From positions 1-62,980 of the forward strand of contig CBFHAJ010000001.1 in assembly GCA_965653495.1 (NCBI GenBank): 62,980 nucleotides of DNA. Reading direction: 5' to 3'. This document shows positions 763 through 43,361 of the stretch, piece after piece (positions within the stretch are counted from its first letter, which is position 1; every line of letters starts with the position of its first letter). The notes beneath the pieces were generated by a model. The model saw nothing but the letters and a program-made list of their open reading frames with translations, did no database searches and was not told where the DNA came from. Source of the stretch: an uncultured bacterium (GTDB lineage Bacteria > Gemmatimonadota > Gemmatimonadetes > Gemmatimonadales > GWC2-71-9). The translations under genes were made by a program, and so were the position numbers.

Positions 763-1808
763 GGTGACCTCCGCGCTGGCGATCGCGGCGTGTACGCGCA
801 CAGGGGGTCCTCGGCGAACGGATCGCCGGTCGCGGCGTAGGCGCGGGCCCGTGACCCGCCGCAGTAGGCGTGAAACTCACAGCGCCCGCACCGCCCGCCA
901 AACAGCTCGGGCTGGCGCAACCGGCGGAACAGGGGAGCGTCGCGGTACAGTGTCACGACGTCGCTGGTACGGACGTTCCCGGCCGACACGGGCAGGAAGC
1001 CCGAAGAGTTGATGTCGCCCGTGTGCGAAATGAACATGACGCCGTTGCCGTCCCGGATGCCGGCGGCGTGCCCGCGCGCAGGAGCCCGGCGGCGCTGCAG
1101 CATCACCCGCCGCAGGTGCGGCGCCTCCGTCGTGGTCACGACCGGAGAGCCCCCGCGTCTCGACAGATCCACCAGCCAGTGCATCACGTCTTCCGCTGCA
1201 GTGGGCGAAATGTCTTCCAACACTGCTCCACGCCCGGTCGGGACCAGGAAGAACAGGCTCCACCGCGCCGCACCCAGCCGACCGGCCAAGAGGTAGATCG
1301 CCGGGAGGTCGTCCAGCGTTTCCTTCGCTACCAGCGTGTTGATCTGGAAGGGGAGCTCCGCGGCGCGCGCCGCTTGAGCGGCATCGAGGGTCCGCTGGAA
1401 CGTGCCGGCGATGCCGCGCAACGCGTCGTGCCGCTCCGGCGTCGCACCGTCAAGCGACAGCGAGATCGCCTCCACGCCGAACTGCTTGAATCGCCGGATG
1501 TCTTCCCCGCACAACAACGGCGTGGCGCTGGGGGCGACCGACACGCCGAAGCCGAGCGTCCGCGCGGCGACGATGAGCGTCCACAGGTCGGGTCGCTTCA
1601 GGGGGTCGCCACCGGTGAGCACAACGTGCGGCTTGGGATCGCCGAATGTCGCCAACTGCTCGAGCAGGCGGAGGCTCTCGGTGGCCGTCAGCTCGTCGGG
1701 ATGCCGCCGCTGGACCGCCGCAGCGCGGCAGTGCCGGCACGCGAGGTCGCAGGCGCGCGTCAGCTCCCAGTACACGCGCAGCGGCGCCCGGTCGAATACC
1801 AGAGTCAT
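759..1808 (-). CDS. Radical SAM / SPASM-domain enzyme (NirJ/AhbD-like family)
   Basis: N-terminal CDLACRHC (CxxxCxxC) cluster motif. C-terminal Cys-rich SPASM-like segment GGRCGRCEFHAYCGGSRARAY..DPLCAY. 349 aa. Confidence 0.85.
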   Translation of the reverse strand: MTLVFDRAPLRVYWELTRACDLACRHCRAAAVQRRHPDELTATESLRLLEQLATFGDPKPHVVLTGGDPLKRPDLWTLIVAARTLGFGVSVAPSATPLLCGEDIRRFKQFGVEAISLSLDGATPERHDALRGIAGTFQRTLDAAQAARAAELPFQINTLVAKETLDDLPAIYLLAGRLGAARWSLFFLVPTGRGAVLEDISPTAAEDVMHWLVDLSRRGGSPVVTTTEAPHLRRVMLQRRRAPARGHAAGIRDGNGVMFISHTGDINSSGFLPVSAGNVRTSDVVTLYRDAPLFRRLRQPELFGGRCGRCEFHAYCGGSRARAYAATGDPFAEDPLCAYTPRSPARRSP

Positions 1809-1962
1809 GGCCCCAATAAGGCCTCCGGTGCATGAAGGCGTCTGGAAGGCGGATTCAGGAGACCTTCACGCTCGCCCGCAGCGATACTCTCACCGCTCAT
1901 ACACAGTGGTTTCAGGGCCGGGCGGCTCTATTTCCTGCGTACCGTCACAAGTGGGAGATCAA

Positions 1963-2340
1963 ATGAGCACCAAGGAACTGGTTGATGCGGCGGTCGAGCA
2001 CATCTACACCCGTGCCGGCGTGAAGACGGTGTACGGCGAGCCGGTCGTGGTCGACGGCAAGACGATCATTCCGGTCGCGAAGGTAGCCTACGGCTTCGGC
2101 GGAGGCGCTGGCTCTAAGAAGGCGCCGGCGAGTGCGGCCGGCAAAGAGGCGCCGGCCAAGACGGGGGAAGGCGCGGGTGGCGGGGTCGCCGCCAAGCCCG
2201 TCGGCGTCGTGGAGGTCACGGACGAGGAGACGAAGTTCGTCGCCTTCGGGCAGACCAAGAAGCTCGCCTGGGCCGCGGCCGTCGGCTCGGCCGTCGGCGT
2301 CCTGCTCGGCCTGCTGCTCGGCGGGCGCCGCAAGAATTGA
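1963..2340 (+). CDS. YtfJ/GerW-family protein
   Basis: In-frame ATG at 1963 inside track ORF 1402..2340. Sequence GEPVVVDGKTIIPVAKVAYGFGGGAGS followed by a Gly/Ala-rich linker and a C-terminal hydrophobic helix, as in YtfJ/GerW proteins. Confidence 0.75.
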   Translation: MSTKELVDAAVEHIYTRAGVKTVYGEPVVVDGKTIIPVAKVAYGFGGGAGSKKAPASAAGKEAPAKTGEGAGGGVAAKPVGVVEVTDEETKFVAFGQTKKLAWAAAVGSAVGVLLGLLLGGRRKN

Positions 2341-2349
2341 AGCTTCGCC

Positions 2350-2790
2350 CTAGTCGTCCCGCGACTTGGGATGGCTCAGCGAGTACACGTACGCCGCGAC
2401 GGCGCGCACCTGCTCCGGCGAGAGGTTCGCGCCACCCATCGGCGGCATCGGCGCCGGCGATTCCTTGGGAGTCGGAACCCCCTTCTGCACGAGGCCCACG
2501 ATGAACGCGTAGCTGCCGTCGCCGTTGAGCCACTTCACATCGGTCAAGTCGGGGGCGAGCCCGGCGGTCCCTTTCGCGTCCTGACCGTGGCACACGGCGC
2601 ATGTACCGCCCGCGATCTTTCCGTGGAACACGCTGTCGCCCAGGGCGATCATCGCTGGCGTGATGGAGTCCGCGCCCGGCGCGGCAGCTGGTTTCGCTGG
2701 CTTCGCGGGCGCCTGCGCTGCGGCGGTCGCTGCCACCACCGCGAGCAGCAGCCCGCTCAAGACGGCTCCACGGCCACCGATCGTCGTCAT
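2350..2790 (-). CDS. Periplasmic monoheme c-type cytochrome
   Basis: Trimmed from track ORF 2350..2916 to the ATG at 2790, which is preceded by AAGGAG. Signal peptide MTTIGGRGAVLSGLLLAVVAATAAAQA, a single CAVCHG heme motif and a distal Met region (PMPPMGG). Confidence 0.85.
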   Translation of the reverse strand: MTTIGGRGAVLSGLLLAVVAATAAAQAPAKPAKPAAAPGADSITPAMIALGDSVFHGKIAGGTCAVCHGQDAKGTAGLAPDLTDVKWLNGDGSYAFIVGLVQKGVPTPKESPAPMPPMGGANLSPEQVRAVAAYVYSLSHPKSRDD

Positions 2791-2809
2791 CACGAGATCT
2801 CCTTCGCCC

Positions 2810-4192
2810 TTAAAACACCAACCACGCGAGCAGGTAGAGGGTGTTGTTGTCCGATGCGTTGCGCCCGGAGCCGTCATAGTTGCTGGTGGCGCCGTTGAAC
2901 TTCGTGTACACAACATACTGCGCCGTGAGCCGGGTGTTGAGCCACGGCAGGAAGTCGAGCTCGGCGATCAGGCCGTTCGAGTTCGGGCTGCCGAGCCGGC
3001 TGCCACTCACGGGACCCGGGGCGTATCGGAGCGTGTCCGCCCCACCGGTGGTCGCGAAGTAGGCGAGGGTGGCGCCCACGCGGCCCGCCGTGTAGTACGA
3101 CCCGTCGACCTTGAAGGTCTTCAGCGTGTTGCTTGCATTCGCGACCTTGGCGCTGTCGAAGGATGCCGTGAGCGTCTGCTGCTCATGGATCCAGGTGGCG
3201 TGCGCCGTGGCGTTGCCGCCGCTAATCCGGCGCTCGTATTGCGCGTCCACACCGACATCCGTGTAGCGATCGGTGGGACCGGCCACTCCCGTCGGGAAGA
3301 GCCGGGTGGACATGCCGTAGGTGCCAAGCTCGAAGTACTGCCCGCGCCAGCCGTGCTGCAAGGCGAACCGCCAGTAAGGCGCGACGCCCTTGAGGGTGTT
3401 CGCCGACAACGCGTCGGGCGGGTGCGAGCCACCCTGAAAGGCCGAGCGGTAGGCGGAGACTTCTCCGTAGATGCGGTTATCCCACAGTGCGTACGCGCCG
3501 AGGCCCGCGCTTTGCTGGGCCAGTCCGCCGTCGATCAAGGTGGCGGCCGCCGGAGCGGGTGCGACCGCGGACGACGCCCAGGGAAAGCCCCACGCAGGCG
3601 TGCTGTTCCAGACGTCTTGTACGGTCGGGTTGTTGTTGAGCGACAGGCCGTAGATCAGCTCCTTGGCAGCGAGTTTACCGTGGTTCGCATAGCGGACGTC
3701 GAAGTTGTCGATCCCGAACGATCCGTCCGGTCCGCTGTAGGTGAACTGCAGGAAGGTCCCCAGCCGCGGCGTGATCTCTTCGCCGAGGAACAGGCTCAGC
3801 TGATCGGGAAGCTCGACGTCGGTATTTTGCGTGCCCGGCTGGGCCGTCTTCGTGCGCGTGACCGACGTCATAACCATGGCGGAAACAGGCGGGATCAGGT
3901 CGATCTTGAGCGAGCGCTTGACCGTGTCGCCCGCTTCCACCACCTGCAGACCGGTGAGGGTGTACCCGTTGAGCTTGAAGCGCCGCCCGAACGGCGTGAG
4001 CTGCGGGAACGTGGTATGACACACGTTGCACGCGAGGCCCGTCTGGCGCGTGAAGCTGGGGATCACCTCGCGGTGAATCGTGTGGACGTTGACCACGAGT
4101 CCTTTCGCCGCGCGCGCGTCGTTCCGCGCGAGCATCGCGGTTCCCGCGAGCGCCACGATCGTGATCAGCCACGGCACCATTCTCGTCGTCAT
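2810..4192 (-). CDS. Fused monoheme cytochrome c - outer-membrane beta-barrel protein (Cyc2/Cyt572-like architecture)
   Basis: 460 aa. Signal peptide, the only two Cys in the protein form CNVCH at aa 55-59, then about 400 aa of alternating beta-strand-like sequence ending ..NNTLYLLAWLVF (terminal aromatic residue typical of OMP barrels). Confidence 0.8.
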   Translation of the reverse strand: MTTRMVPWLITIVALAGTAMLARNDARAAKGLVVNVHTIHREVIPSFTRQTGLACNVCHTTFPQLTPFGRRFKLNGYTLTGLQVVEAGDTVKRSLKIDLIPPVSAMVMTSVTRTKTAQPGTQNTDVELPDQLSLFLGEEITPRLGTFLQFTYSGPDGSFGIDNFDVRYANHGKLAAKELIYGLSLNNNPTVQDVWNSTPAWGFPWASSAVAPAPAAATLIDGGLAQQSAGLGAYALWDNRIYGEVSAYRSAFQGGSHPPDALSANTLKGVAPYWRFALQHGWRGQYFELGTYGMSTRLFPTGVAGPTDRYTDVGVDAQYERRISGGNATAHATWIHEQQTLTASFDSAKVANASNTLKTFKVDGSYYTAGRVGATLAYFATTGGADTLRYAPGPVSGSRLGSPNSNGLIAELDFLPWLNTRLTAQYVVYTKFNGATSNYDGSGRNASDNNTLYLLAWLVF

Positions 4193-4429
4193 TGCTCCTC
4201 CCAGCGGAGTTCGGGCGGTTAAGACTCCGCTGATGTTAGAGTGAACTTCATGAAGACAGAGCCGGGCGATGCTGAAGAAACCTTCAGGAATGGCGCCGGG
4301 GCCGGGCCATGCTGGTCTAGCCCCTTCGTCGTGATAAGAGATCCCTCGTGAGCGCCTCAGCGTTTCTTCACGCTCGGCCTGCGATCATGTGCGAAGCAGG
4401 TCGGTACGGACCTCGGGCCAGGAGGACTT

Positions 4430-5350
4430 ATGGCGTGGAAACCCATCGTAGTCGGTATGGACGCCTCTCCCGAGGCGGCCGGTGCAGCGGCGCTAGCGGG
4501 CCGGATCGCTGCAGAAGCTCATACCAGCTGCTACCTGGTCCATGCGGCACATGACCTGTGGGGATCGCTCCAGCCGGATGAGGGTGGGGAGGAGCTGCAG
4601 CGCGCGGTGATCGACGCCGCGCGCGTCCGCATCGGCGCCGTTCTGCAAGACGTAATCCCGCCCGAGCTGATCGGCACACTCGCCATTCGCTCGGGACGCG
4701 CGGCGACGCTGTTGTGTCAGGCGGTCACTGATCTGGGAGCGGAACTGGTGGTGCTCGGCGGGAAGCACCATTCGGCCCTCGGGCGCTGGCTCGGCGGCAG
4801 CACGAGCTTAAACGTGGTCCGCACGACTCATGTGCCGCTGCTCGTCACGGTGGGATCGCCCTTAGCGATTCGTCGGGTGCTGGTCGCGGTGGACGGCTCC
4901 CGCGCAGCCCCACCGACGCTGCAAGCAGCCGAGCGTCTCGCCGCTACGCTCGGTGCCGAGCTGCGCGCGCTCAGCGTCATCGAACCGCTGCCGGTCATCC
5001 CCGAGGTGACGCCGCCCTACGAGACCGCGGGCTATTACGCGCTCGCTCGGGAACAGCTCCAGCGCGACGTATGGAGCCAGATTCGCACGCCCGGCGTCGA
5101 GCCGATCATTCGCTACGGCCAGGCGGTCGAGGAGATCGCGCGAGCGGCAACCGAATGGCACGCGGACGTGCTCGTGGTGGGCTCGCACGGCCGGGGTTGG
5201 GCCGAACGGATGCTCGTGGGGAGCGTGACCGAGCGGCTCCTGAACCAGCTGCCGACCTCGGTGCTGGTGGTGCCCACGGCGATCGCCGTCGCGGAAGAGG
5301 ATGAAGCTGAAAGGGCAGAAGTAGCGCGGCCGGCGGTGGCGATCGCCTGA
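4430..5350 (+). CDS. Universal stress protein, tandem USP domains
   Basis: 306 aa. Two repeats of the USP pattern (..IVVGMDASPEA.. / ..VLVAVDGSRAA.. and ..LVVLGGKHHSALGRWLGGS.. / ..VLVVGSHGRGWAERMLVGSV..). Confidence 0.85.
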   Translation: MAWKPIVVGMDASPEAAGAAALAGRIAAEAHTSCYLVHAAHDLWGSLQPDEGGEELQRAVIDAARVRIGAVLQDVIPPELIGTLAIRSGRAATLLCQAVTDLGAELVVLGGKHHSALGRWLGGSTSLNVVRTTHVPLLVTVGSPLAIRRVLVAVDGSRAAPPTLQAAERLAATLGAELRALSVIEPLPVIPEVTPPYETAGYYALAREQLQRDVWSQIRTPGVEPIIRYGQAVEEIARAATEWHADVLVVGSHGRGWAERMLVGSVTERLLNQLPTSVLVVPTAIAVAEEDEAERAEVARPAVAIA

Positions 5351-7841: not shown

Positions 7842-7865
7842 TCTCCGTTTGTCCGCCTAGGTTTT

Positions 7866-7940
7866 CGGGGCGTAGCGCAGCCCGGTTAGCGCGCCTGGTT
7901 CGGGACCAGGAGGTCGGTGGTTCAAATCCACTCGCCCCGA
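7866..7940 (+). tRNA. tRNA-Pro (anticodon CGG)
   Basis: Folded by hand: acceptor CGGGGCG/CGCCCCG, D-arm GCGC/GCGC, anticodon stem CCTGG/CCAGG with loop TTCGGGA, T-arm GGTGG-TTCAAAT-CCACT, discriminator A. 75 nt, no encoded CCA. Confidence 0.9.
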
Positions 7941-7942
7941 CT
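7910..7942 (+). repeat. Left copy of the 33-nt direct repeat (3' end of tRNA-Pro); att-like
   Basis: GAGGTCGGTGGTTCAAATCCACTCGCCCCGACT matches 18519-18551 at 31 of 33 positions. Both differences lie in the T-loop. Confidence 0.85.
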
Positions 7943-8232
7943 AAGTAGCACAGGACCTTAGTCTTACGACTGTCGTCCTCCCGAGTCCTGCCGTGACTGC
8001 TGTGGTTACGCGGATGACCAATCCGCCGCCCGATGTTCCTAGAGACTGTTGCTGCGATGAGCTCAAACACGCGGCCCTGCCTGCCCACGGCGGTCAGCCT
8101 CCAACTCCTCTGGGGGCCTGGCTTGTGCCAGCCACCTGCCGTCGAGGCTGAACGCAATATCCGCCCCCTCTTCCGCGTCCGGCCAGTGTGCTAACCGCGC
8201 TCCCTTGTGCCGGGTCGCAACACGAAAAAGAC

Positions 8233-9081
8233 CTACCGCCCCGCCTGAACCGCCGCTCGATATCTCGCGGGCGTGGTCCCCACGATTCGATGGAAGGCCC
8301 TCGTGAGGTGACTCTGGTCGCAAAACCCGACCTCCGCGGCAACCTCGGCGAGGGAACGCTGGGTCTGGGCGATGAGGCGGGTGGCATGCTCGACGCGAAC
8401 ACGAGCGACGTACTCCGCAACCGCGAACCCGTGGCGCGCCCGGAACGTTCGGGCGATGTGGATTGGATGTACCCCCACGAGCGGGGCGAGGGCGGCGAGC
8501 GACGGTGGCGCGCGGAACTCGTCGCGGAGGATGTCCTCGATGACGGTGAGCCAGCGCGGCGCGGCATGCGCCGTCAGCGCGGACACCTCACGCTGGAGCA
8601 TGCCAAGCAGCTCCAGCATCAAGCCTTCGATGAGGATAGCGGACGCTTGGTCCTGGCGGCGACTCTCATCGCGGATGCGCATCGCCGCCCAGGGCACGAT
8701 CCCCGTCGTGAAGACGCGTGGCTCCTGGAGCACACGAGTCATCTCGCCGACGCGATCGAGCCATCCCTCGCCCAGCTCGATCGCGAACACGCGACCGCCA
8801 TGCTCGGTAAATCGGTCCCAGTGCACTTCGCCCGCCGGGTGATAGATCACCGTTCGGGTGGAGCAGTGCCGCGTCCCGCCCTCGTAGCCTTCGTTCCACC
8901 GACCCTCAAGGACCAGGCAGAGATACGGAGAGGAGTGCGCGTGCGGCGGCGTCATCTCCCCACCCGGGTGTACCTTCTCGGTCAGCAACAGTCCCGCCAC
9001 TTCGTTCGCGCGCACCCTGCGGCCGTAGTAGGTGCCCCGGGGCAGCACGACGCTCCATCGCTGATGCTCACGAGCGATCAT
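8233..9081 (-). CDS. AraC-family transcriptional regulator (cupin sensor plus HTH)
   Basis: 282 aa. C-terminal AraC signature ..LAALAPLVGVHPIHIARTFRARHGFAVAEYV..AEVGFCDQSHLTRAFHRIVGTTPARYR. Confidence 0.85.
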   Translation of the reverse strand: MIAREHQRWSVVLPRGTYYGRRVRANEVAGLLLTEKVHPGGEMTPPHAHSSPYLCLVLEGRWNEGYEGGTRHCSTRTVIYHPAGEVHWDRFTEHGGRVFAIELGEGWLDRVGEMTRVLQEPRVFTTGIVPWAAMRIRDESRRQDQASAILIEGLMLELLGMLQREVSALTAHAAPRWLTVIEDILRDEFRAPPSLAALAPLVGVHPIHIARTFRARHGFAVAEYVARVRVEHATRLIAQTQRSLAEVAAEVGFCDQSHLTRAFHRIVGTTPARYRAAVQAGR

Positions 9082-9155
9082 GAATTCACTTTAACGGAAA
9101 AGAGGTTTGGGAGGTACAAGACGCTCCGCAGGGGCCGGTATATACTGGTCCTCTC

Positions 9156-11111
9156 ATGGCATCCCGACGGGCGTGGTCGCTGGTCTTGGCGCTGTGCCTC
9201 CAGGTGGCGGCGGGCCTTGCGGCGCAGAACGCCTTCCTGACACCGCCCGACAACCTGGTCGGCGATGGCATTCCCCCGATCCCCAGCGCACTCAAGACTC
9301 AGGTTGAGCCCTACACCCGCGCGCGCGCCGCCGAGTTATTGAGTTGGCATCCCGTCACGCGCGAGATGCTCATTGCGACGGGGTTCGCGAACGTCCCCCA
9401 GGTCTATCTCGTCGAGATGCCGGGCGGCGCGCGCCGGCAGCTGACGTTTTTCGAGGATCGTCCGACGAGGGGCGTCTCGTACCAGCCCACCACGGGCGCC
9501 TATTTCCTCTTTCTAAAAGACAGCGGCGGCAACGGGAACACGCAGATCTACCGCTACGATTTCGCCGACGCGAAAATCACGCTACTGACCGATGGTCGGT
9601 CGCGCAACAGCGCGGGGGTGTGGGCGCACGGCGGTGACCGGATTGCCTACACCTCCACCCGACGCACCGGCCGAGACGCGGATCTGTACGTCGTGAATGC
9701 ATTAGATGCGCAGAGCACGCGGATGGTTGCGGCCCTCGAGGGCGGCGGATGGTACGCGCTCGACTGGTCACCCGACGACCGCAGCATCTTGATGCAGGAA
9801 GGCCGGTCGATCAACGAGAGCTATCTCTGGCGCGTCGACGTGCAAAGCGGCGCGCGTACGCCGCTGACCACCACGAGTGACTCAGCCACCGCGTATGAGG
9901 CAGCGCGCTTCACGCGTGACGGACGCGGCCTCTTTGTTCTCACCGATCGGGGAGCGGAGTTCAAACGCCTCGCCGTGCTCGACCTGCGCACGAATCACCT
10001 CCGGTTCGTCACCGCCGGCATTCCCTGGGACGTCGCTGAATACGACATCACGGCCGATGGCAAGACGGCTGCGGTGGTGACCAACGAGAACGGTCTTTTC
10101 GTTCTGCATCTAATCGACACCGCGACTGGGAAGGAGCGCAGCAATTCCGGTCGTCGCGCGCCGCTCATCGGGGTGACCGAAGTGCGCTGGCACCCGAGCG
10201 GACGGTGGCTGGGGTTCGACATGACCTCCGCCCGCGCGAACACGGACGCGTATTCGTTGGACGTGGCGACGGGCAAGCTTGAGCGGTGGACGTTCAGCGA
10301 GCTGGGAGGCATCGCCACCAACCAGTGGGTCGAGCCAGAACTGATCAAATGGAAGGGCGCCGACGAACGGGAAATGTCCGGATTCCTGTACCGGCCGCCG
10401 GCACGATTCACGGGCAAACGGCCGGTGATCATCGATATCCACGGGGGACCCGAGGAACAGTTTCAGCCCTGGTTCATGGGAAGCGACAACTATCTGCTGA
10501 ATGAGTTGGGAATCGCGCTGGTGCATCCCAATATTCGCGGCTCTTCAGGCTTCGGGAAAACGTTCCTGAAGCTCGACAACGGTGTGCTGCGGGAGAACGC
10601 GTACCAGGATATCGGCGCGCTGCTCGACTGGATCGCCGCTCGCCCCGACCTCGACGCCGCGCGGGTGATGGTGACCGGCGCGAGCTATGGGGGCCACATG
10701 ACGCTCGTCACCGCTGCACGCTATGCTGAGCGCATTCGGTGCGCGGTCGACATCTTCGGCCCGTCCAATCTCGTCACGTTCCTCGAGCACACGGCCGAGT
10801 ATCGGCGCGATCAGCGGCGGGCGGAGTATGGGGATGAGCGCGACTCGGTGGTCCGCGCGTTCATGGAGCGCACCGCACCGCTGAACAACGCCTCCAAGAT
10901 CACGAAGCCCCTGTTCGTCGTGCAGGGCGCCAACGATCCGATTGTGCCTCCGAGCGAATCGGAGCAGATGATTCGGGCAGTGCGGGCGAATGGCGTGCCG
11001 GTGTGGTATTTGCTAGCGAAGAATGAAGGGCACGGCTTCACGAACAACGCGGACCGCGATTATCAGTTTTACGCAACCGTCTTATTCATCAAGACTTATC
11101 TTTTGAACTGA
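9156..11111 (+). CDS. S9-family serine peptidase (prolyl oligopeptidase/acylaminoacyl peptidase type) with N-terminal beta-propeller
   Basis: 651 aa. Signal peptide, TolB-like propeller repeats (..DWSPDDRSIL.., ..RWHPSGRWLGF..), nucleophile elbow GASYGGHMT, and distal D/H region (..VQGANDPIVP.., ..NEGHGF). Confidence 0.9.
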   Translation: MASRRAWSLVLALCLQVAAGLAAQNAFLTPPDNLVGDGIPPIPSALKTQVEPYTRARAAELLSWHPVTREMLIATGFANVPQVYLVEMPGGARRQLTFFEDRPTRGVSYQPTTGAYFLFLKDSGGNGNTQIYRYDFADAKITLLTDGRSRNSAGVWAHGGDRIAYTSTRRTGRDADLYVVNALDAQSTRMVAALEGGGWYALDWSPDDRSILMQEGRSINESYLWRVDVQSGARTPLTTTSDSATAYEAARFTRDGRGLFVLTDRGAEFKRLAVLDLRTNHLRFVTAGIPWDVAEYDITADGKTAAVVTNENGLFVLHLIDTATGKERSNSGRRAPLIGVTEVRWHPSGRWLGFDMTSARANTDAYSLDVATGKLERWTFSELGGIATNQWVEPELIKWKGADEREMSGFLYRPPARFTGKRPVIIDIHGGPEEQFQPWFMGSDNYLLNELGIALVHPNIRGSSGFGKTFLKLDNGVLRENAYQDIGALLDWIAARPDLDAARVMVTGASYGGHMTLVTAARYAERIRCAVDIFGPSNLVTFLEHTAEYRRDQRRAEYGDERDSVVRAFMERTAPLNNASKITKPLFVVQGANDPIVPPSESEQMIRAVRANGVPVWYLLAKNEGHGFTNNADRDYQFYATVLFIKTYLLN

Positions 11112-11541: not shown

Positions 11542-12891
11542 TCACGTCTGCTCCAGCGCTCCGCCCCATTGCAAGCGCGCGCACTCGGGGCAGATGCCGT
11601 GGCTGAACTCGACCTGGCTGTGACTCCGGACATACGACTCGAACTGCTCCCAGCTGCCTAGGTCCGTCAGGACGCGCTTGCAGTTGGCGCAGATTCGGAT
11701 CAGTCCCTGGAGCGTCTTGACCTCGAGAAGCGCAGTTTGCAGCTCGCGTAGCAAGGTCTCCTTAACCTCTTCTGCCCGCTTCCGGTCGGTGATGTCGATC
11801 CAGACGCCAACGGCTGCGCCGGGTGCCGCGTTCGGCTCCTGGATGAGCCGCAACTCGTCTCGGATCCAGCGATAGGTCCCGTCACCGTGACGGAACCGAT
11901 ACTCGCACGTGAATTGTCCCGAGGCGACGAGAGCGGCCCCGCTTGCTAGAGCGCTCTCCCGGTCGTCGGGGTGGAGGTGCTCGGTCCACCACGATAGCCC
12001 CAGGGCGGTTGCAGCGTCGTAACCCATGACTCGTTGGATGTTGTCGCTGACCCAGTCGGGCGTGAATCGTCCGTTGTCGACGTGGACGGCGTAGAGGATG
12101 GCGTTGCTCGAGGCCAACAGCCGCTGGAGCCGCGCCTGCGCGATCCGCACCTGGCGTTCCCCGTGCCGCGCCACGACTGACGTCAGCACCGCAAGGCCGA
12201 GCACGATCACGGTGGTGCCCGCGACGCCGACCGCGCTGAGCGCGGAGGCGGGGACGCTGCTATCCGGCGCGCCCCCGGGCCCGCTCAGGAAGGTCGCCGC
12301 CGCCATCCCGGTGTAGTGCATGCTCGGAATGGCAAGGCCCATCAATACCGCGCTCCCGACCTTCCTCCAGTTCCACGTCTCTGCCTTCTCGCGACCATAA
12401 TAGAACGCGAACCAGAGCGCCGCAGCGGAGACGCCAATCGCGATAACGACCGAGAGGACGACGAGCCACCAGTTCCAGCGCACCGTCCCGGGAAGGCGCA
12501 TCGCCGCCATTCCGGTATAGTGCATGGTGGCGATCCCGGCGCCCATGACAACGCTGCCCGCGGCGGTCCGCATCGCCGTCAACTCTTCGCGACTGGCGAC
12601 GTAGAGGGCGACCGCGGACGCCAGCACCGCTGCGAGGAGCGATTGCGCGACCGTTGGCACATGGTAGAGCACGGGAACGGGCAGTCGGAAGGCGAGCATT
12701 CCGGTGTAATGCATCGACCAAATGCCAAGACCCATCGCGCACGCCCCGCCCGCGACCCAAGCCGCCTGTCCACGACCCCGTGCGGCTGTCACCTGGCCTG
12801 CCAGGTCCAGGGCCGCGCCGGCGGCGAGGATTGCGATGACCACCGACAGCGCGACGAGTCGGAGGTCGTAGCTGCCAGCGATCGGCGTCAC
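11542..12891 (-). CDS. MHYT-domain membrane sensor fused to a PAS domain and a C-terminal Cys/His (CxxC..HGICPxC) module
   Basis: 449 aa. Three MHYTGM motifs lie in transmembrane helices. A PAS core follows (..ILYAVHVDNGRFTPDWVSDNIQRVMGYD..). The C-terminus is ..IRICANCKRVLTDLGSWEQFESYVRSHSQVEFSHGICPECARL. The start forms a GTGA overlap with the upstream kinase. Confidence 0.85.
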   Translation of the reverse strand: MTPIAGSYDLRLVALSVVIAILAAGAALDLAGQVTAARGRGQAAWVAGGACAMGLGIWSMHYTGMLAFRLPVPVLYHVPTVAQSLLAAVLASAVALYVASREELTAMRTAAGSVVMGAGIATMHYTGMAAMRLPGTVRWNWWLVVLSVVIAIGVSAAALWFAFYYGREKAETWNWRKVGSAVLMGLAIPSMHYTGMAAATFLSGPGGAPDSSVPASALSAVGVAGTTVIVLGLAVLTSVVARHGERQVRIAQARLQRLLASSNAILYAVHVDNGRFTPDWVSDNIQRVMGYDAATALGLSWWTEHLHPDDRESALASGAALVASGQFTCEYRFRHGDGTYRWIRDELRLIQEPNAAPGAAVGVWIDITDRKRAEEVKETLLRELQTALLEVKTLQGLIRICANCKRVLTDLGSWEQFESYVRSHSQVEFSHGICPECARLQWGGALEQT

Positions 12892-14813
12892 TTCGCGTCG
12901 AGCACGTCGCGCACCTTGCGCGCGAGCGCGGCCGGGGTGAAGGGCTTCTGGAGGAAGTTCAGTCCCGGCTCGAGCATCCCGTGGTGCACGATGGCGTCGT
13001 CCGTGTACCCCGAGACGTAGAGCACCTTCGTGGCAGGACGCGTCAGCGCGAGCCGCCGCGCCAGGTCGCGGCCACTCGCCCCGGGCATCACGACATCGGA
13101 CACGAGCAGGTGAATCGACTCTGCGTGCGCGGCAGCCAGTGCGAGCGCCTGCGTCGCGTCTTCGGCCTCGAGCACGGTGTAGCCGAGCTTCTCGAGGAGC
13201 GCCTTCGCGAGCGGCCGGAGTATCGCGTCGTCCTCGGCGAGGAGGATCGTCTCCGTGCCTGTCACCGCCTCCGCCTCGCGTGGTGGCGCCACGCGCTCAG
13301 CGGGCGCGTCGACCCGTGGCAGATAGATCTTGAACGTCGTGCCCCGGCCAGGCTCCGAGTACACCCAGATGTAACCGCCCGACTGCTTCACGATGCCGTA
13401 TACCGTCGAGAGCCCGAGGCCGGTCCCGCGACCCTTCTCCTTGGTGGTAAAGAACGGCTCGAAGATCCGGGCCTTGGTCTCGGGCGTCATGCCGCTGCCG
13501 GTGTCGCTCACTGCGAGCATCACGTAGCGGCCGGGAGTCACCGGCTGGTGCAGCTCGGCGTACTGCTCGGTCAGGTCCGCGTTCGCGGTCTCGACGATGA
13601 GCTTGCCCCCTGTCGGCATGGCGTCGCGTGCGTTGACCACGAGGTTCATGATCACCTGCTGGAACTGTCCTGGGTCGGTGCGCACATTGCCAGTTTCGAC
13701 AGCCAGATTGAGACGCACCTCCACGTCTTCGCCGAGCAGTCGTCGCAGCATCTTGTCGACCTCTTCGACCAGATCGTTCAGGCTCAGGACGATGGGTTCG
13801 AGCACCTGCTGGCGGCTGAAGGCGAGCAGCTGCCTGGTGAGCGAGGACGCGCGTTGGGCAGCCTTGCGAATCTCTTCGAGGTCCTGCCGCGCCGGGCTGG
13901 CGGCTGGCAGTTCCTCCAGCATCAGGTCGGCGTACCCGAAGATGGCGGTCAGCACGTTGTTGAAGTCATGCGCCACGCCACCAGCCAAACGGCCGATGGC
14001 CTCCACCTTCTGCGACTGGCGGAGCTGCTCTTCCAACTCGCGACGCTCCGTGATGTCGCGATAGTTGGCGACGATCGCTCGCACGCCGGGCTCGGAGAGC
14101 AGGTTTGTGAACGTGCTCTCGCAGAGTCGCCATGACCCGTCTTGGTGCCGTACTCGCGCCTCGAGCCCGACCTTGCGCGCTTCGGAGCGCAGTCCCTTCA
14201 CGAACTGAGGTTGGACCTGCGCCAGATCGTCCGGGTGGAGGAGGTCGAGGGCGTTTCGTCCCACCAGCTCCGTGGGGTCGTAGCCGAGGATCGCGGCGGT
14301 CGCGGGGCTGGCGTACGTTATGCTGCCGTCCGACCTGAACAGGGCGATCCCATCCGCGCTGTTCTCGATCAGCGCACGGAAACGCTGCTCGCGCTCCGCC
14401 AGCGCTTCCTCCGCCGCTTTGCGCTCGATCGCATAACGCAGGACACGCGCCAGGAGGTGCCCCTCAATCCGCCCCTTTACGACGTAGTCCTGCGCACCCG
14501 AACGCACGGCCTCGAGTGCCACGCGCTCGTCGTCGAGGCCGGAGATGATGACGATGGGCTCGTGTGGCAGCCTGCGTCGCGCCCGCACGAACGTGTCGAG
14601 CCCGTTGCTATCGGGGAGCCCCAGGTCCAGTAGCACGACGTCCACAGCGGCGTGGTCGACGCGATCCAGGGCGACCTCAAGGCGATCGACACGCTCGAGG
14701 TCGAACGCAACCGCCTGCACCTCGCGAAGCAGCTCGAAGATGAGCCGCGCATCGCCCGGATTGTCTTCCACGAGCAGCACTCTGATCGGGCGCACGCCGG
14801 CCGAGGCGGTCAC
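12888..14813 (-). CDS. Hybrid sensor histidine kinase (REC-PAS-HisKA-HATPase-REC)
   Basis: 641 aa. N-terminal REC ([16 protein letters not shown]), a PAS domain, H-box GGVAHDFNNVLTAI, N/G boxes (NLVVNARDAMP, DTGSGM, GTGLGLS) and a C-terminal REC (ILLAEDD..VSDVVMPG). Confidence 0.9.
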   Translation of the reverse strand: MTASAGVRPIRVLLVEDNPGDARLIFELLREVQAVAFDLERVDRLEVALDRVDHAAVDVVLLDLGLPDSNGLDTFVRARRRLPHEPIVIISGLDDERVALEAVRSGAQDYVVKGRIEGHLLARVLRYAIERKAAEEALAEREQRFRALIENSADGIALFRSDGSITYASPATAAILGYDPTELVGRNALDLLHPDDLAQVQPQFVKGLRSEARKVGLEARVRHQDGSWRLCESTFTNLLSEPGVRAIVANYRDITERRELEEQLRQSQKVEAIGRLAGGVAHDFNNVLTAIFGYADLMLEELPAASPARQDLEEIRKAAQRASSLTRQLLAFSRQQVLEPIVLSLNDLVEEVDKMLRRLLGEDVEVRLNLAVETGNVRTDPGQFQQVIMNLVVNARDAMPTGGKLIVETANADLTEQYAELHQPVTPGRYVMLAVSDTGSGMTPETKARIFEPFFTTKEKGRGTGLGLSTVYGIVKQSGGYIWVYSEPGRGTTFKIYLPRVDAPAERVAPPREAEAVTGTETILLAEDDAILRPLAKALLEKLGYTVLEAEDATQALALAAAHAESIHLLVSDVVMPGASGRDLARRLALTRPATKVLYVSGYTDDAIVHHGMLEPGLNFLQKPFTPAALARKVRDVLDAK

Positions 14814-15250
14814 GGCAGTCTCACGATTTGCAGCCAGAATTGCTCGATCGAGTTGACTGCCTCGACGAACTGCTCCAGGCCGATTGGTTTCGTGACGTAG
14901 GCGTTGGCGTGCAGCCGGTAGCTCTGCTGCACGTCGCGTTGCTCCCGCGAACCGCTGACCACGACGACCGGGATGTGCCGGAGCTGGGGGTCGGCCTTGA
15001 TGTCGGCCAGCACCTGCCGGCCGTCCTTCCCCGGAAGGTTCAGGTCGAGGAGGATCAGGTCCGGAAGGCGAGCGTCGGCAAAATGACCTTCCCGCCGCAA
15101 GTACGCGAGCACGTCTGTGCCGCTCGTCAGGACGCGCACGCGATTACGCACTTTGGCGCGTTCGAGCGCGCGGGTCGTGAGGGCCGCGTCGTCGGGACTG
15201 TCCTCGACCAGCAAGACGTCGATCGGCATGCCGCTCAAGGCCCCACTCAT
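14810..15250 (-). CDS. Single-domain response regulator (REC only)
   Basis: Trimmed from track ORF 14810..15280 to the ATG at 15250, which forms an ATGA overlap with the upstream REC gene. Motifs: [29 protein letters not shown]. Confidence 0.85.
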
Positions 15251-15690
15251 ATCCGTGACAGCTTCACGATCTCGAGCCAAAAGTGCTCGATCGACCCTAC
15301 CACCTTGAGAAACTGCTCCAGATCCACCGGCTTGGTGACGTACGCATTGGCCCGCAGGCGATAGCTCTCGGCGATGTCCTTCTCGGCCTGCGACGTCGTC
15401 AGAATGACCACCGGGATGTGCTTGAGGCCGTCGTCGTTCTTGATCTCGTCCAGCACCTCCCGCCCATCCTTTTTGGGGAGGTTCAGATCCAAGAGGATGA
15501 GGTCAGGCGTGGGAACGGAGGCGTACTTGCCCTGCCGCCGGAGAAAGGCCATTGCTTCGACACCATCGAGTGCCACGTGCAGGTTGTTCCGCACCTTCGC
15601 GTCGCGCAGGGCCTCACGCGTCAGGCGGGCGTCACCGGGATTGTCCTCGACGAGCAGGATCTCGATCGGTACGAGCGTGGGGGCGGTCAT
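15247..15690 (-). CDS. Single-domain response regulator (REC only)
   Basis: 147 aa. Motifs: [29 protein letters not shown]. The start lies 2 nt after the stop of the upstream kinase. Confidence 0.9.
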
Positions 15691-15692
15691 TC

Positions 15693-18095
15693 TCAGGCCT
15701 CCGTGCCGGCCGGGAGCGTGAAGGAGAACGTGGAGCCCTGCCCAGGTGATGACTCGACCCAGATGCGGCCGCCATGCCGCTCCACGATCTTCTTCGCGAT
15801 CGCCAGCCCGATCCCCGTGCCCGGGTAGTCTTCCTTCCCGTGAAGCCGCTGGAAAATGATGAAGATCCGGTCGAAGTACTGCGGATCGATCCCGATTCCG
15901 TTATCGCGGACGCCGAACACCCACTCACGGTCGCGTCGCTGCGCAGAGATCTGAACTTGCGGGCGACCGGGACCGCGGAATTTGAGCGCGTTGGAGACGA
16001 GATTAAGAAACAAGTGCTCGAGCTGGCCAGCATCACCAGAGACCATCGGTAGCCCGTCGCGAGTCACGGTCGCACCCGTCTCCTCAATCGTGAGCTTCAA
16101 GTGCGCGAGGGCATGGTCAACCACGGCGCCCACGTCGGTCGGGGCGAATGCGGCACCGCGCGTCCCGACCCGGGAGAACGCCAACAAGTCCTCGATGAGG
16201 CGCTGCATCCGGAGCGCGCCGTCGAGTGCGTACCCGATGAACTCGTCAGCGTCGGCATCGAGCTTCCCCTTGTAGCGCTTTCCCAGGAGCTGCACATAGC
16301 TGCCCACCATGCGGAGCGGCTCCTGGAGGTCGTGTGACGCCACGTACGCGAAGCGCTCCAGCTCTTCGTTCGAGCGACGCAGCTCCTGCTCGGCGCGCTT
16401 GCGCTCGGTGATGTCGACGACCGAGGCGAGGACGAACAGCCCCTCGTCCGTCTCAAGCGGGTTGAGCCCGATCTCGACGGGGACTTCGCGGCCGTCCTTG
16501 CGGACGCCGAAGAGATCGCGACCGGCCCCCATCGCCCGGGTCTGCGGGCTGCCGAAAAACGCCTCCCGATACCCGGGGTGCCGTTCCCGGAGCCGTGCGG
16601 GCACGAGCACTTCGATCGGTCGACCCAGGAGTTCCTCGCGCGGATACCCAAAGAGCCGCTCGATCTCCCGGTTCACGAGGACGATCTTCCCCTCGCGGTC
16701 GATCATGAGCATGCCGTTCGGGGACGACTCGACCGCGGCCCGGAAGCGCGCCTCTGCTCGCCTTCGGGCACTGATATCGACGACGGACGCGAGGACGAAC
16801 ATGCCTTCGTCGGTCGCGAGGGGATTCAGACCGATCTCGACGGGGACCTCGCGGCCGTCTTTGCGCCGGCCGAATAGTTCGCGCCCCGCCCCCATCGCCC
16901 GAGCTTCCGGACTGGAGAGGAACCCGGAGCGCAATTCCGGGTGTCGGGCTCGTGTCCCTTGCGGGACGAGCGTCTCGATCGCACGTCCGAGGAGCTCATC
17001 GCGAGAGTAGCCGAACAGCCGCTCGATCTCGCGGTTCACGAGGACGATCGTCCCCTCGCGATCGACCATGACCATGCCGCTCGGGGACGACTCCACCGCC
17101 GCTTCGAACCGCTCCTGGGCGCGCTTACGCTCGGCCAGGTCCCGCGCTCGACCGGCCATCTCCGCCTCAAGTCGCTGCCGTGACTGATGCGTGAGGCCCC
17201 ACGCCCCCACGCCACCCGCCGCCACGAGCGCCAACGCGATGATGCTGACGCCCGCGAGGAAGCTCGTTGCGGGAGCCAGCACACGCTCGCGGGACAACTC
17301 TACCAGAAGAATCCAGGGAGTCCCCGCGATTGGGGTTGCTCGGGCGATGTACATCGTGCCGCTGTGGGCATAGTCGACGATGTCGCGCTGGGTATGCAGG
17401 TCGACGGGCGGGGGCGCGACCGGACCGGACAGGTCAGTCCACACATCGCCTCGTTCATTCCCGATACGCAGACCCGCATCGGGCCCGATGATCTCGGTGA
17501 GCTGCCGAGTCGCCTCCGGCTGTGCGTGTACCCGTCGCCAGTTGACCACGTAGCCGGCCGGTGGGCCGCCGCTCGAGACGGTCGCGATCACCGGAAACAC
17601 CACAGTGTCTCCGATCTGGCGTAGGTCACCGAACGCACGGCCGCCCCCTGTCGCCGCGGACGCCATAAGCCGCCGCGTCGCGCTTGTATCCCCGACGGGT
17701 AAGGCCCACCCCGTGGTCAGCAGGCGGTCGCCCGCAGAACGCCACAGTTCGACCGCTGCGTTGAGTGAGTCGCGTGTTCTCAAGGCTTGCAGGGCCCGCA
17801 CCGCCGCCGTTCGACTCGCTGGGCTGGGGCGAACGCTTGCGAGATAGGTCCGAATCGCTGGATCGCTAGCGACCTGTCGCACCTCGCCGAATCGCTGTGG
17901 CGCTCCGGCGGTCAGGCTCGCTTCGAGCTGCTTCGTCACGCGCTGCAGGTGCTCGCGGGCGGCACTGAGTAGGACGCTTCGAACCTTCGCGTAGGCGAGC
18001 CAGGAGAACGCGCCGATGGCAACCACGAGCAGGCCGCTCATGAGCAACGGGAGTCGGAGCTCGAGCGGCTTGGTGGCGAGCCGGAGGCGCATCAT
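15693..18095 (-). CDS. Membrane sensor histidine kinase (TM-periplasmic domain-TM, two tandem PAS domains, HisKA, HATPase)
   Basis: 800 aa. Two hydrophobic helices flank a roughly 240-aa extracytoplasmic region. Two PAS units of about 121 aa are near-duplicates. H-box [14 protein letters not shown]; G boxes DNGIGI and GTGIGLAI. Confidence 0.9.
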
Positions 18096-38091: not shown

Positions 38092-38490
38092 ATGCTGCCC
38101 CGCACCGGACCCCTCCCCCGCCCCGCCAACCCCGCGGAGGCACGCGAGCATCTCAAGGCCGAGGCGTTTCCCGCTCCCGATGTCCAAACCATCACCCTCA
38201 CGGCCACCGAGTTCACGTCCATTTGTCCCCGCACCGGCCAGCCCGACTTCGGCAGTGTGGTGATCGAGTATACGCCGGGGGAGCGCTGCCTCGAGTCGAA
38301 GGCCTTGAAGGTGTATCTGTGGTCGTTCCGTGAGGAAGGCGCCTTCTGCGAGAGCCTGGCCGCCCGCATCGCCGACGACATCGTCTACGCCATCCGGCCC
38401 AAGACGCTGCGCGTGCAGGTCAACCAGAACGTCCGGGGCGGCATCGCGCTGTTCGCGGTGGCGCAGCGGGGGGCTGCCCCGAGCGACTAA
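38092..38490 (+). CDS. queF: NADPH-dependent 7-cyano-7-deazaguanine reductase (type I)
   Basis: 132 aa. ..EFTSICPRTGQPDFGSVVIEY..CLESKALKVYLWSFR.. (catalytic Cys and the QueF motif). Confidence 0.9.
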   Translation: MLPRTGPLPRPANPAEAREHLKAEAFPAPDVQTITLTATEFTSICPRTGQPDFGSVVIEYTPGERCLESKALKVYLWSFREEGAFCESLAARIADDIVYAIRPKTLRVQVNQNVRGGIALFAVAQRGAAPSD

Positions 38491-39140
38491 AAGCCCAGCG
38501 CCAGACCGACCCGCGCCGTGGTCTCCTGAATCGGCGCCTCGAGCTCCTGTACCGCTGTGCCGCCGGGTTTGGTCTTACGGTTCATGCGATTGAAGGCGTA
38601 CGCCGCCGTGCCGTGCAGCCGCCCCGCCAGCCGAACGTCGAGCCCCAGCCCCAGGTCGAGCGACACCGTCGCCTGGCCTCCCCCTGAGAATTTCGGGGCC
38701 GCGAGATAATCGGCGCGGAACGACACGGTCGCGCCGGGCCCGAGGTCATAGAACGAGCGCGCGCCCACGCGCACGGCGCCCACCGCCTGGGCGTCGAATT
38801 CGGGATCGACGCTGCGGTGCAGCACCCCCACCTCGATGCTGGCGTACGAGGCCACGTCATAGGCGAGCCAGGCGTCGACTTGCGTGGCCGTGAACCCCTG
38901 CGAAGCGGTGCTGCCACTGGACGGATCGAAGCTGAAGCGCACCACGCTCGCCTCCGCCGACAGCCGGTCACGCCGGGCCGTGGCCGCCGCGCCGAATCCC
39001 GTGCCGTTGTAGCGCAAGCCGGAGGCGACTTCACGATAGTCGCTGAGCACCACTTGTGGCCCGATCGTCAGGTGCTGACCGAATGCAGCCGGCGTCACTG
39101 CGGCCAACAGGCCGAGCGCGCCGATCGCCGCGCGCCTCAT
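38487..39140 (-). CDS. Small outer-membrane beta-barrel protein
   Basis: 217 aa. Signal peptide MRRAAIGALGLLAAVTPAAFG, an alternating hydrophobic pattern and a terminal ..GLALGF. The start forms an ATGA overlap with the upstream gene. Confidence 0.75.
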   Translation of the reverse strand: MRRAAIGALGLLAAVTPAAFGQHLTIGPQVVLSDYREVASGLRYNGTGFGAAATARRDRLSAEASVVRFSFDPSSGSTASQGFTATQVDAWLAYDVASYASIEVGVLHRSVDPEFDAQAVGAVRVGARSFYDLGPGATVSFRADYLAAPKFSGGGQATVSLDLGLGLDVRLAGRLHGTAAYAFNRMNRKTKPGGTAVQELEAPIQETTARVGLALGF

Positions 39141-40189: not shown

Positions 40190-40193
40190 GCGC

Positions 40194-43336: not shown

Positions 43337-43361
43337 GCGCCAATCTAATAAACGCCGCCTG

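Follow-up and report, generated by a model that had tools for sequence, protein, structure and literature searches.

The DNA considered here is a window of 62,980 nucleotides (nt), the whole stretch that was analysed, from an uncultured bacterium of the Gemmatimonadales (assembly GCA_965653495.1, contig CBFHAJ010000001.1, positions 1 to 62,980). Near its left end two adjacent genes on the minus strand encode a Cyc2-like protein and a small cytochrome c. The first gene (2810..4192) specifies a protein of 460 amino acids (aa) plus stop in which a monohaem cytochrome c is fused to an outer-membrane porin of 16 strands, recognized by its open reading frame (ORF), by homology to the Cyc2 proteins of rusticyanin (rus) operons and by a predicted barrel. 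The second (2350..2790, with its ATG at 2790) specifies a monohaem class-I cytochrome c of 146 aa, recognized by its ORF and by Pfam. The interpretation favoured here, with rather better than even confidence, is that the two form an operon for an outer-membrane protein of the Cyc2 family and the periplasmic cytochrome that is its cognate partner, which passes electrons from a reductant, most probably Fe2+.

The cyc2-like gene and its partner

The frame 2810..4192 starts with ATG in the ORF list and ends with TAA at 2810–2812. A strong Shine–Dalgarno sequence read from the DNA, GGGAGGAG (4195..4202, minus strand), ends 2 nt before the start codon, and its GGAGGAGC is kept in three related loci (L026, L027 and L042; loci of relatives carry an L number throughout). 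At third codon positions the GC content (GC3) reaches 0.87, as is usual for genuine genes of this window, which has 67% GC overall. No exact match to the 460-aa protein is on record in the assembly collection.

The N-terminus, approximately aa 1–28 (4109..4192, minus strand), resembles a signal peptide. Read by eye, it comprises a charged n-region, a 15-residue hydrophobic core (PWLITIVALAGTAML) and an Ala-rich c-region (ARNDARA). In the AlphaFold2 (AF2) model described below, aa 5–29 form a hydrophobic helix, set apart from the fold by a stretch with low predicted local distance difference test (pLDDT) scores. Most homologues have an A-x-A site directly before their VPSFARQTG motif. We infer export via Sec. 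The protein has exactly two Cys residues, C55 and C58, both inside a single haem-binding motif, CNVCH (aa 55–59; 4016..4030, minus strand), identified from the sequence and from the alignment of homologues. The motif is part of a cytochrome domain (aa 44–80; 3953..4063, minus strand), IPSFTRQTG-LA-CNVCH-TTF-PQL-TPFGRRFKLNGY, which is the family's most conserved stretch. The chain terminates in ...LLAWLVF, and 205 of 270 homologues end in Phe. A preliminary description of this DNA, made from its letters, had listed the ORF, the signal peptide and the lone pair of Cys residues in one CNVCH at aa 55–59, and every one of these elements is present.

Downstream of cyc2, a spacer of 19 nt (2791..2809, minus strand) contains a second Shine–Dalgarno sequence, AAGGAG (2799–2804), also read from the DNA. 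This arrangement implies co-transcription of cyc2 and the cytochrome gene. The 146-aa product combines a signal peptide, an Ala/Pro/Lys-rich linker, a CAVCH motif at aa 64–68 (nt 2587–2601) and a PMPPMGG Met-ligand region. Pfam matches are to Cytochrom_C (E 3.5e-10, above the cut-off) and Cytochrome_CBB3 (E 1.1e-09), in agreement with the monohaem cytochrome c reported in the preliminary description at this distance from cyc2.

Several sequence elements lie ahead of cyc2. A 7-bp hairpin, GCGGAGT-N13-ACTCCGC (4204–4230, minus strand), directly adjoins the Shine–Dalgarno sequence within the 5' leader; in L026, a 92% relative, only one change in the 3' arm sets it apart, and in L027 and L042 it is not kept. 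In the divergent intergenic region that cyc2 shares with a universal stress protein (USP) gene there is a palindrome, CTTCATGAAG (4246–4255), identical upstream of L026, L027 and L042 despite diverged surrounding sequence. A second palindrome, TGAAG-N4-CTTCA (4273–4286), lies about 30 nt from the first. The first palindrome may serve as an operator for a regulator. A scan of positions 1800–4700 found no promoter or terminator, which is uninformative, as the sigma-70 consensus may not fit promoters of Gemmatimonadota.

Relationship to the Cyc2 family

The 460-aa protein has no match in Pfam or NCBIfam. This null result is uninformative, because bona fide Cyc2 of Acidithiobacillus is likewise without a Pfam match. 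Searches of PDB sequences, with the single sequence and with a profile, returned only insignificant matches of the CxxCH region to multihaem cytochromes. Reference Cyc2 proteins were obtained through their operon. A rusticyanin query that matches PDB 1CUR residue for residue was used to fetch 20 Acidithiobacillus-type loci with 10-kb flanks, and six of these carry the whole rus operon. One of them (L009) encodes, in order, a 485-aa CxxCH protein, a 229-aa dihaem cytochrome c, an ORF, COX2, COX1, an ORF and rusticyanin, as identified with Pfam. This is the classical rus gene order, which identifies the leading gene as cyc2. The rusticyanins of L006 and of L007, an Acidithiobacillus-type metagenome bin, are 100% and 96% identical to the PDB rusticyanin. 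Alignment A2 consists of the six rus-operon Cyc2 proteins, which come from A. ferrianus, A. ferrivorans, A. ferruginosus and three metagenome bins labelled only 'Proteobacteria bacterium'. Alignment A1 consists of 128 homologues of the window protein, down to 34% identity.

Each comparison places the window protein with these references. In BLASTP it is 33% identical to the rus-operon Cyc2 of L007 over 455 columns (aa 44–460 against 32–484; E 1e-65). Profile–profile alignment of A1 with A2 by hhalign gives a probability of 100% and an E-value of 3.3e-91 over 439 columns, and a hidden Markov model (HMM) built from A1 scores the six rus-operon proteins at 340–405 bits. The Cyc2-like, one-haem-plus-porin identity proposed in the preliminary description is borne out by these values. 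In the definition of Keffer et al. (2021), a Cyc2 protein has a signal peptide and only one CXXCH, with PXL four residues beyond it, measures 365 aa or more and includes a 16-strand porin (PMC8406198). A further motif just upstream of CXXCH, AXPXFAR[Q/K][T/Y], is termed unique to Cyc2 (PMC8406198). The window protein has a signal-peptide-like N-terminus, one CXXCH, the upstream consensus with Thr, the PXL, a sufficient length and a predicted 16-strand barrel. The same authors ask for a blastp E-value of 1e-5 or lower against a characterized Cyc2; the value found is 1e-65, with a rus-operon orthologue (L007) as the reference. As judged by homology, the window protein is almost certainly a full-length member of the Cyc2 family.

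The family is large. At least 7,914 homologues of the 460-aa protein occur in a database clustered at 90% identity, and among clusters at 50% identity 2,898 match at E<=1e-3 and 470 at E<=1e-30. Of 270 homologues retrieved, 248 reach the N-terminus, and all 248 have exactly one CxxCH. The 22 without the motif are nearly all visibly N-terminally truncated fragments, one of which (P0199) stops inside the Cyc2 signature. Within A1 the invariant residues are C55, C58, H59, L65, G69 and F72 in the haem region and R167, D193, R275, G290 and D316 in the barrel; P45, R49, Q50, T51, G52, P63, R70, K73 and Y77 are conserved in at least 90% of sequences. The PXL motif lies four residues past CXXCH (CNVCH-TTF-PQL), with P63 in 125 of 128 sequences and L65 in 128 of 128. 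The preliminary description had proposed conservation of the CxxCH among close homologues as a check, and the motif passes it, being invariant in the 128 aligned proteins and single in every N-terminally complete one.

The A1 consensus around the haem site is AVPSFARQTGxxCxxCHTxFPxLTPFGRxFKLxGY. The window signature, V-I-P-S-F-T-R-Q-T-GLA-CNVCH-TTF-PQL, departs from the published Cyc2 consensus only by Val and Thr in place of Ala. The residue after the signature Phe, Thr in the window protein, varies within the family: in A1 it is Ala in 88 sequences, Ser in 26 and Thr in 10, and among 198 homologues scored it is Ser in 104, Ala in 67 and Thr in 23. A literal filter of the form PXFAR[Q/K][T/Y], as used for the 2021 tree, would pass over the window protein along with the majority of its close relatives.

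An ordinary porin with a chance CxxCH, or an artefact of ORF calling in high-GC DNA, might be suspected where Pfam, NCBIfam and PDB sequences all fail to match and where many spurious long ORFs overlap on the opposite strand. Against this stand the GC3 and the Shine–Dalgarno sequence of the gene, its thousands of homologues, the invariant CxxCH with its flanking signature and the confident AF2 model. The chance of such an error is negligible, and it was rejected on the conservation of CxxCH and the BLASTP match to rus-operon Cyc2.

Published identities help to place the protein within the family. A. ferrooxidans Cyc2 is 18–23% identical to members of other clusters and 27–30% to its own cluster-mates (PMC8406198). 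By this pattern of identity, the window protein probably belongs to the A. ferrooxidans cluster (Cluster 2 in the text of PMC8406198). The one haem, 16-strand porin, consensus motif and OprP/OprO-like matches published for the Cyc2 of Mariprofundus ferrooxydans PV-1 and of other neutrophilic iron oxidizers (Cluster 1; PMC8406198) recur in its sequence and predicted structure. Identities across clusters are only 17–23% (PMC8406198), so the protein is probably not of Cluster 1. Cyt572 of Leptospirillum, by published description, is a fused cytochrome–porin of Cluster 3 that oxidizes Fe(II), with an unusual haem and a long branch.

The resemblance to Acidithiobacillus Cyc2 extends over the whole protein. 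Both have a signal peptide, a single CxxCH and the pattern FxRQTG-xx-CxxCH-xxx-PQL-TP-GR-FKL-G[YF] with identical spacing, and the two are collinear through the barrel. The signature of the rus-operon Cyc2 is ALPSFARQTGWSC; its P, F, R, Q and T and their spacing are the same in the window protein. Shared barrel blocks include NNxPT..D.WN.TP.W..P, APY.R.A.QH.W, E.G.YGM and W..EQQ, followed by SP...........LPW.NTR....Y..Y.KF.G and NTL.LLAW. Each protein has an aromatic C-terminus, and each gene is followed by a c-type cytochrome gene about 11–19 nt downstream. The differences are an identity of only 33%, the replacement of the signature Ala by Thr, about 16 extra residues between signal peptide and motif, and a shorter chain (460 aa against 484–516). 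The cytochrome encoded downstream is a monohaem protein of 146 aa in the window and dihaem Cyc1 of 229 aa in Acidithiobacillus. The hosts differ as well, the one a neutrophilic-soil member of the Gemmatimonadales and the other an acidophilic proteobacterium. The window does not have the rus-type operon (cyc2-cyc1-orf-coxBACD-rus), as neither dihaem cyc1 nor cox nor rusticyanin genes follow cyc2.

Some of the reference operons are carried on plasmids. In A. ferrianus MG the order cyc2-cyc1-orf-coxB-coxA-coxC-...-rus, checked with Pfam, lies on plasmid p1MG (L009, NZ_CP127524.1), and a chromosomal rusticyanin is also present in A. ferrianus (L020). On plasmid pCF3-2 of A. ferruginosus CF3 (L006, NZ_CP130948.1) only cyc2 and rus were confirmed. 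The plasmids of CF3 and MG measure 51 kb and 62 kb, respectively. Plasmid-borne rus operons fit the picture of an iron-oxidation module that moves between genomes.

Predicted structure

The AF2 model of the 460-aa protein, built on alignment A1, has a mean pLDDT of 91.5, a predicted template modelling (pTM) score of 0.86 and 16 long beta-strands between aa 103 and 459. The porin barrel, delimited by AF2 and Foldseek, covers aa 103–460 (2813..3886, minus strand) and closes with the C-terminal Phe. Its predicted transmembrane strands, as assigned by DSSP, are 103–114, 124–141, 144–153, 158–174, 177–186, 228–237, 241–250 and 271–282 for strands 1–8 and 285–301, 308–323, 326–340, 354–367, 372–383, 405–417, 420–432 and 451–459 for strands 9–16, all with a block-mean pLDDT above 90. 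Before the barrel the model has a small helical haem-binding segment (aa 46–74, block pLDDT approximately 62–92), then a short hairpin. A Foldseek search of the PDB finds 16–18-strand porins (E approximately 1e-8, TM score 0.4–0.6), among them OmpT, OmpU, OmpF, Omp32, AlgE and OprP (2o4v). OprP is one template reported for Cyc2 modelling, and a 16-strand barrel is predicted for all Cyc2 proteins (PMC8406198). With 16 modelled strands and porins as the best PDB matches, the outer-membrane barrel claimed in the preliminary description is confirmed at the level of prediction.

The architecture recalls the MtrAB, MtoAB and PioAB systems, in which a haem protein housed in an outer-membrane barrel exchanges electrons across that membrane with periplasmic cytochromes. 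The barrel there has 26 strands and the decahaem cytochrome is a separate protein, whereas the window protein has one fused haem, 16 strands and no Pfam match to MtrB/PioB.

A conserved operon of cyc2 and a cytochrome c

Loci of relatives were taken from look-ups of exact proteins and from a metagenome scan with the single 460-aa protein. A cytochrome c orthologue, 70–88% identical, stands directly downstream of cyc2 in 21 of 21 loci that have at least 72% identity and enough downstream sequence. These 21 include a few contigs fetched twice (for example, L001 = L034), so the independent cases are somewhat fewer. The one exception, L054, has no downstream cytochrome and looks like a broken or chimeric contig. 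A survey of synteny had been suggested in the preliminary description, which read the neighbourhood as redox- and hypoxia-related. Across the relatives, cyc2 and the cytochrome gene stay together in otherwise differing neighbourhoods, and the supposed redox/hypoxia neighbourhood is not consistently conserved beside them. As the other neighbours vary among loci, the conserved functional unit, judged from gene order, is cyc2 plus cytochrome c rather than the wider region.

A variant of this unit has two porins. In the clade with 72–78% identity (L001, L002, L031–L034 and L040), the cytochrome gene is followed by a second, haem-bearing Cyc2 paralogue in a cyc2A-cytc-cyc2B array. The same array occurs in L041, where the second copy and the window protein share 59% identity. 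A single cyc2 copy is present in the window and in its closest relatives (83–92% identity).

Both Cyc2 copies of the arrays carry IPSFSRQTGLRCxQCH. The Cyc2 genes of the arrays were located at 7863–9164 (plus strand) in L001, 2507–3913 in L031, 2981–4387 in L032, 3322–4728 in L033, 6818–8146 in L034 and 1704–2705 in L040; the two copies of L041 lie at 2–1051 and 1562–2923. A cytochrome at first placed upstream of cyc2 in L041 is actually the second gene of its array.

Gene order also bears on the idea that the protein is a haem porin without an electron relay, whether it senses redox state or gases, takes up haem or iron, or holds haem as a structural cofactor, and that the neighbouring cytochrome c is unrelated to it. 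Such a role would suit the nearest neighbours in the closest relatives, which are a USP stress protein and YtfJ/GerW and not respiratory genes, and it would suit a distal haem ligand that is not obviously conserved. The tight, conserved operon with a periplasmic carrier cytochrome and the cyc2-cytc-cyc2 variants favour electron hand-off instead, as does homology to a proven electron-transfer protein. A haem porin without a relay appears quite improbable. That the protein acts as an electron conduit from the outer membrane to the periplasm is very likely.

Proposed mechanism and the nature of the donor

The proposed mechanism starts from what was observed or computed, namely gene structure, motif, fold prediction, homology and operon conservation; localization, haem attachment, electron direction and the Fe(II) donor are its inferred elements. 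(i) Both proteins would be exported by Sec, and haem would be attached in the periplasm to CNVCH and CAVCH. (ii) The barrel would be inserted by the beta-barrel assembly machinery (BAM), with the C-terminal Phe as the usual signal. (iii) The small haem domain would then lie at the periplasmic opening of the barrel or within it. (iv) A soluble extracellular reductant would enter the narrow 16-strand pore and reduce the haem. By analogy with three characterized Cyc2 proteins, this reductant would most probably be Fe2+. [quoted passage not shown] The scanned ORFs of the window include no oxidase or bc complex, so the downstream electron path must be encoded elsewhere.

The analogy draws on A. ferrooxidans Cyc2, Leptospirillum Cyt572 and M. 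ferrooxydans PV-1 Cyc2, which oxidize Fe(II) in vitro (PMC8406198). Whether Fe(II) is the physiological donor of the window Cyc2 is an even call.

The chief competing explanation keeps the architecture and changes the job: electrons might be exchanged with Mn(II), with humics or quinones in reduced form, or with the surfaces of minerals, or the protein might serve as an outward electron sink, or it might oxidize Fe(II) for detoxification, with no gain of energy, in a soil bacterium that is otherwise a heterotroph. Cyc2 homologues are common in organisms not known as iron oxidizers, and the authors of the family study allow additional functions (PMC8406198). In one survey most new Cyc2-like sequences came from putative heterotrophs, including Gemmatimonadota (PMC9769843). 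'Tenderia electrophaga', which is associated with cathodes, has a homologue, and a paper on Mn-oxidizing 'Ca. Manganitrophaceae' discusses Cyc2. The operon, moreover, is without linked oxidase or carbon-fixation genes. Fe(II), on the other hand, is oxidized by all three biochemically tested members of the family. The closest characterized relative found is the Acidithiobacillus iron oxidase, at 33% identity compared with 27–30% among that protein's own cluster-mates, and one haem within a narrow pore of 16 strands has been proposed to suit a small soluble donor and not solids (PMC8406198). A different job of this kind is possible and, on balance, unlikely.

Several observations weigh against transfer of electrons from Fe(II) to a cognate cytochrome as set out above. 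Function is uncertain for Cyc2 homologues distant from the characterized ones, and additional functions are possible (PMC8406198); hits to Cluster 3 are handled as uncertain in a later study. Fe(II) oxidation by the Cyc2 of Gemmatimonadota is plausible, as an extrapolation from other phyla. Among the 37 ORFs scanned in the 63-kb window there is no terminal oxidase, COX1, COX2, cupredoxin/rusticyanin or bc1/ACIII, and none of oxidase, rusticyanin or bc1/ACIII adjoins cyc2 in the loci of relatives. The haem itself has no evident second ligand. No second His is conserved in the family. The best distal-ligand candidate is Met106, in a PLSAM-type motif at the start of barrel strand 1 (aa 102–106; 3875–3889, minus strand); it is present in 100 of the 128 A1 sequences (78%) and absent from Acidithiobacillus Cyc2. 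The partnership with the cytochrome also has bounds. An adjacent cytochrome gene is absent in L003–L005 (64% identity) and in L045, L048, L049 and L053 (37–66%), and in L044 (54%) a different, 283-aa CxxCH protein is encoded downstream of cyc2. The partner itself matches one haem domain of dihaem Cyc1 weakly (26% identity, E 2e-4) and, by sequence, is a class-I cytochrome c and not a Cyc1 orthologue.

A broader proposal is more tentative still and, on present evidence, somewhat doubtful: a widespread clade of soil Gemmatimonadales may use cyc2-cytc, in some members cyc2-cytc-cyc2, for oxidation of Fe(II) at neutral pH or for electron uptake.

Genomic surroundings and host

The cytochrome gene is followed in the window by a convergent YtfJ/GerW gene. 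Beyond this lie two genes on the minus strand (361–1808). The first encodes a radical S-adenosylmethionine (rSAM)/SPASM protein of TIGR04053 (445.6 bits; the next best match is haem b synthase AhbD) and overlaps the downstream gene, for a CBS-pair protein, by 43 nt. Of the neighbours named in the preliminary description, the rSAM/SPASM gene (759–1808), the CBS pair (361–801) and a tandem USP (4430–5350) are present; the GAF sensor was not found at E<=1e-4 in the 37 ORFs scanned. A functional link of cyc2 to the AhbD-like rSAM/SPASM and CBS genes was considered and rejected, as they lie beyond the convergent gene and, like a Kelch protein, were not detected beside cyc2 in the loci of relatives, many of which are too short to reach that far. 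USP genes occur near cyc2 in L026–L029, directly adjacent only in L026, which also has YtfJ. The surroundings of cyc2 in L001 and L003 are quite different. In L003 a radical-SAM gene lies about 5 kb from cyc2.

The 37 scanned ORFs further include regulators, peptidases, PAS/MHYT sensor kinases, Rho, RuvX, QueC, a CDF transporter and a molybdopterin oxidoreductase. Signalling genes follow one another on the minus strand at 11542–18095, where they encode an MHYT-PAS membrane sensor, a hybrid protein with PAS, histidine kinase and receiver domains, two response regulators of a single domain each and a PAS-PAS histidine kinase. The molybdopterin oxidoreductase (59222–62176, plus strand) has 984 aa and N-terminal 2Fe-2S and 4Fe-4S domains, and resembles NuoG or the alpha subunit of formate dehydrogenase. 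No other enzyme of clear redox character was found in the rest of the window. At 38487–44825 there are four consecutive ORFs of 217, 386, 543 and 504 aa with high GC3 and no Pfam match at E<=1e-4.

The host, as its genes indicate, is an uncultured soil member of the Gemmatimonadales. Rho of the window (52180–53439) is 93–97% identical to Rho of soil metagenome-assembled genomes (MAGs) labelled Gemmatimonadales or Gemmatimonadetes, and the named homologues of the cytochrome–porin are from Gemmatimonadota. Two Rho matches (P0306 and P0350, 94–96% identical) carry the labels Anaeromyxobacteraceae and Candidatus Sulfotelmatobacter; every other named match is labelled Gemmatimonadales or Gemmatimonadetes. 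The two probably stem from contigs that were mis-binned in public MAGs.

Implications

The preliminary description had presented the locus as a trait not expected in its lineage, a view overtaken by earlier reports of Cyc2 homologues and iron-oxidation clusters in MAGs of Gemmatimonadota. Such homologues have been described from hydrothermal chimneys (PMC9769843) and marine sediments (PMC11316326). Variants of an Acidithiobacillus-like iron-oxidation system in soil Gemmatimonadetes MAGs have been attributed to lateral transfer (2020 preprint, bioRxiv 10.1101/2020.03.01.968255), and horizontal transfer is extensive in the Cyc2 tree (PMC12442345). The Cyc2 family, its architecture and its presence in Gemmatimonadota are thus already known. 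Modestly new are the tightly conserved operon of cyc2 and a monohaem cytochrome, the cyc2-cytc-cyc2 variant and the FSRQT/FTRQT signature that dominates the clade.

Among genetic markers of iron oxidation by microbes Cyc2 is the most widely used, and its meaning outside known iron oxidizers is unsettled. The locus is a clean and unusually well-conserved example of Cyc2 from soil Gemmatimonadales, with a confident barrel model and a comparatively high identity (33%) to the Acidithiobacillus oxidase, and the co-inherited periplasmic cytochrome offers the next link in a possible electron path. In practice it is a good candidate to express and assay for Fe(II) oxidation, and to follow when soil metatranscriptomes are read. 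If the operon is indeed a module for Fe(II) oxidation or electron uptake at neutral pH, earlier motif-filtered censuses of Cyc2 would have under-counted this clade, because most of its members carry FSRQT or FTRQT and not FARQT, and an abundant, nominally heterotrophic soil phylum would be an unrecognized player in iron cycling.

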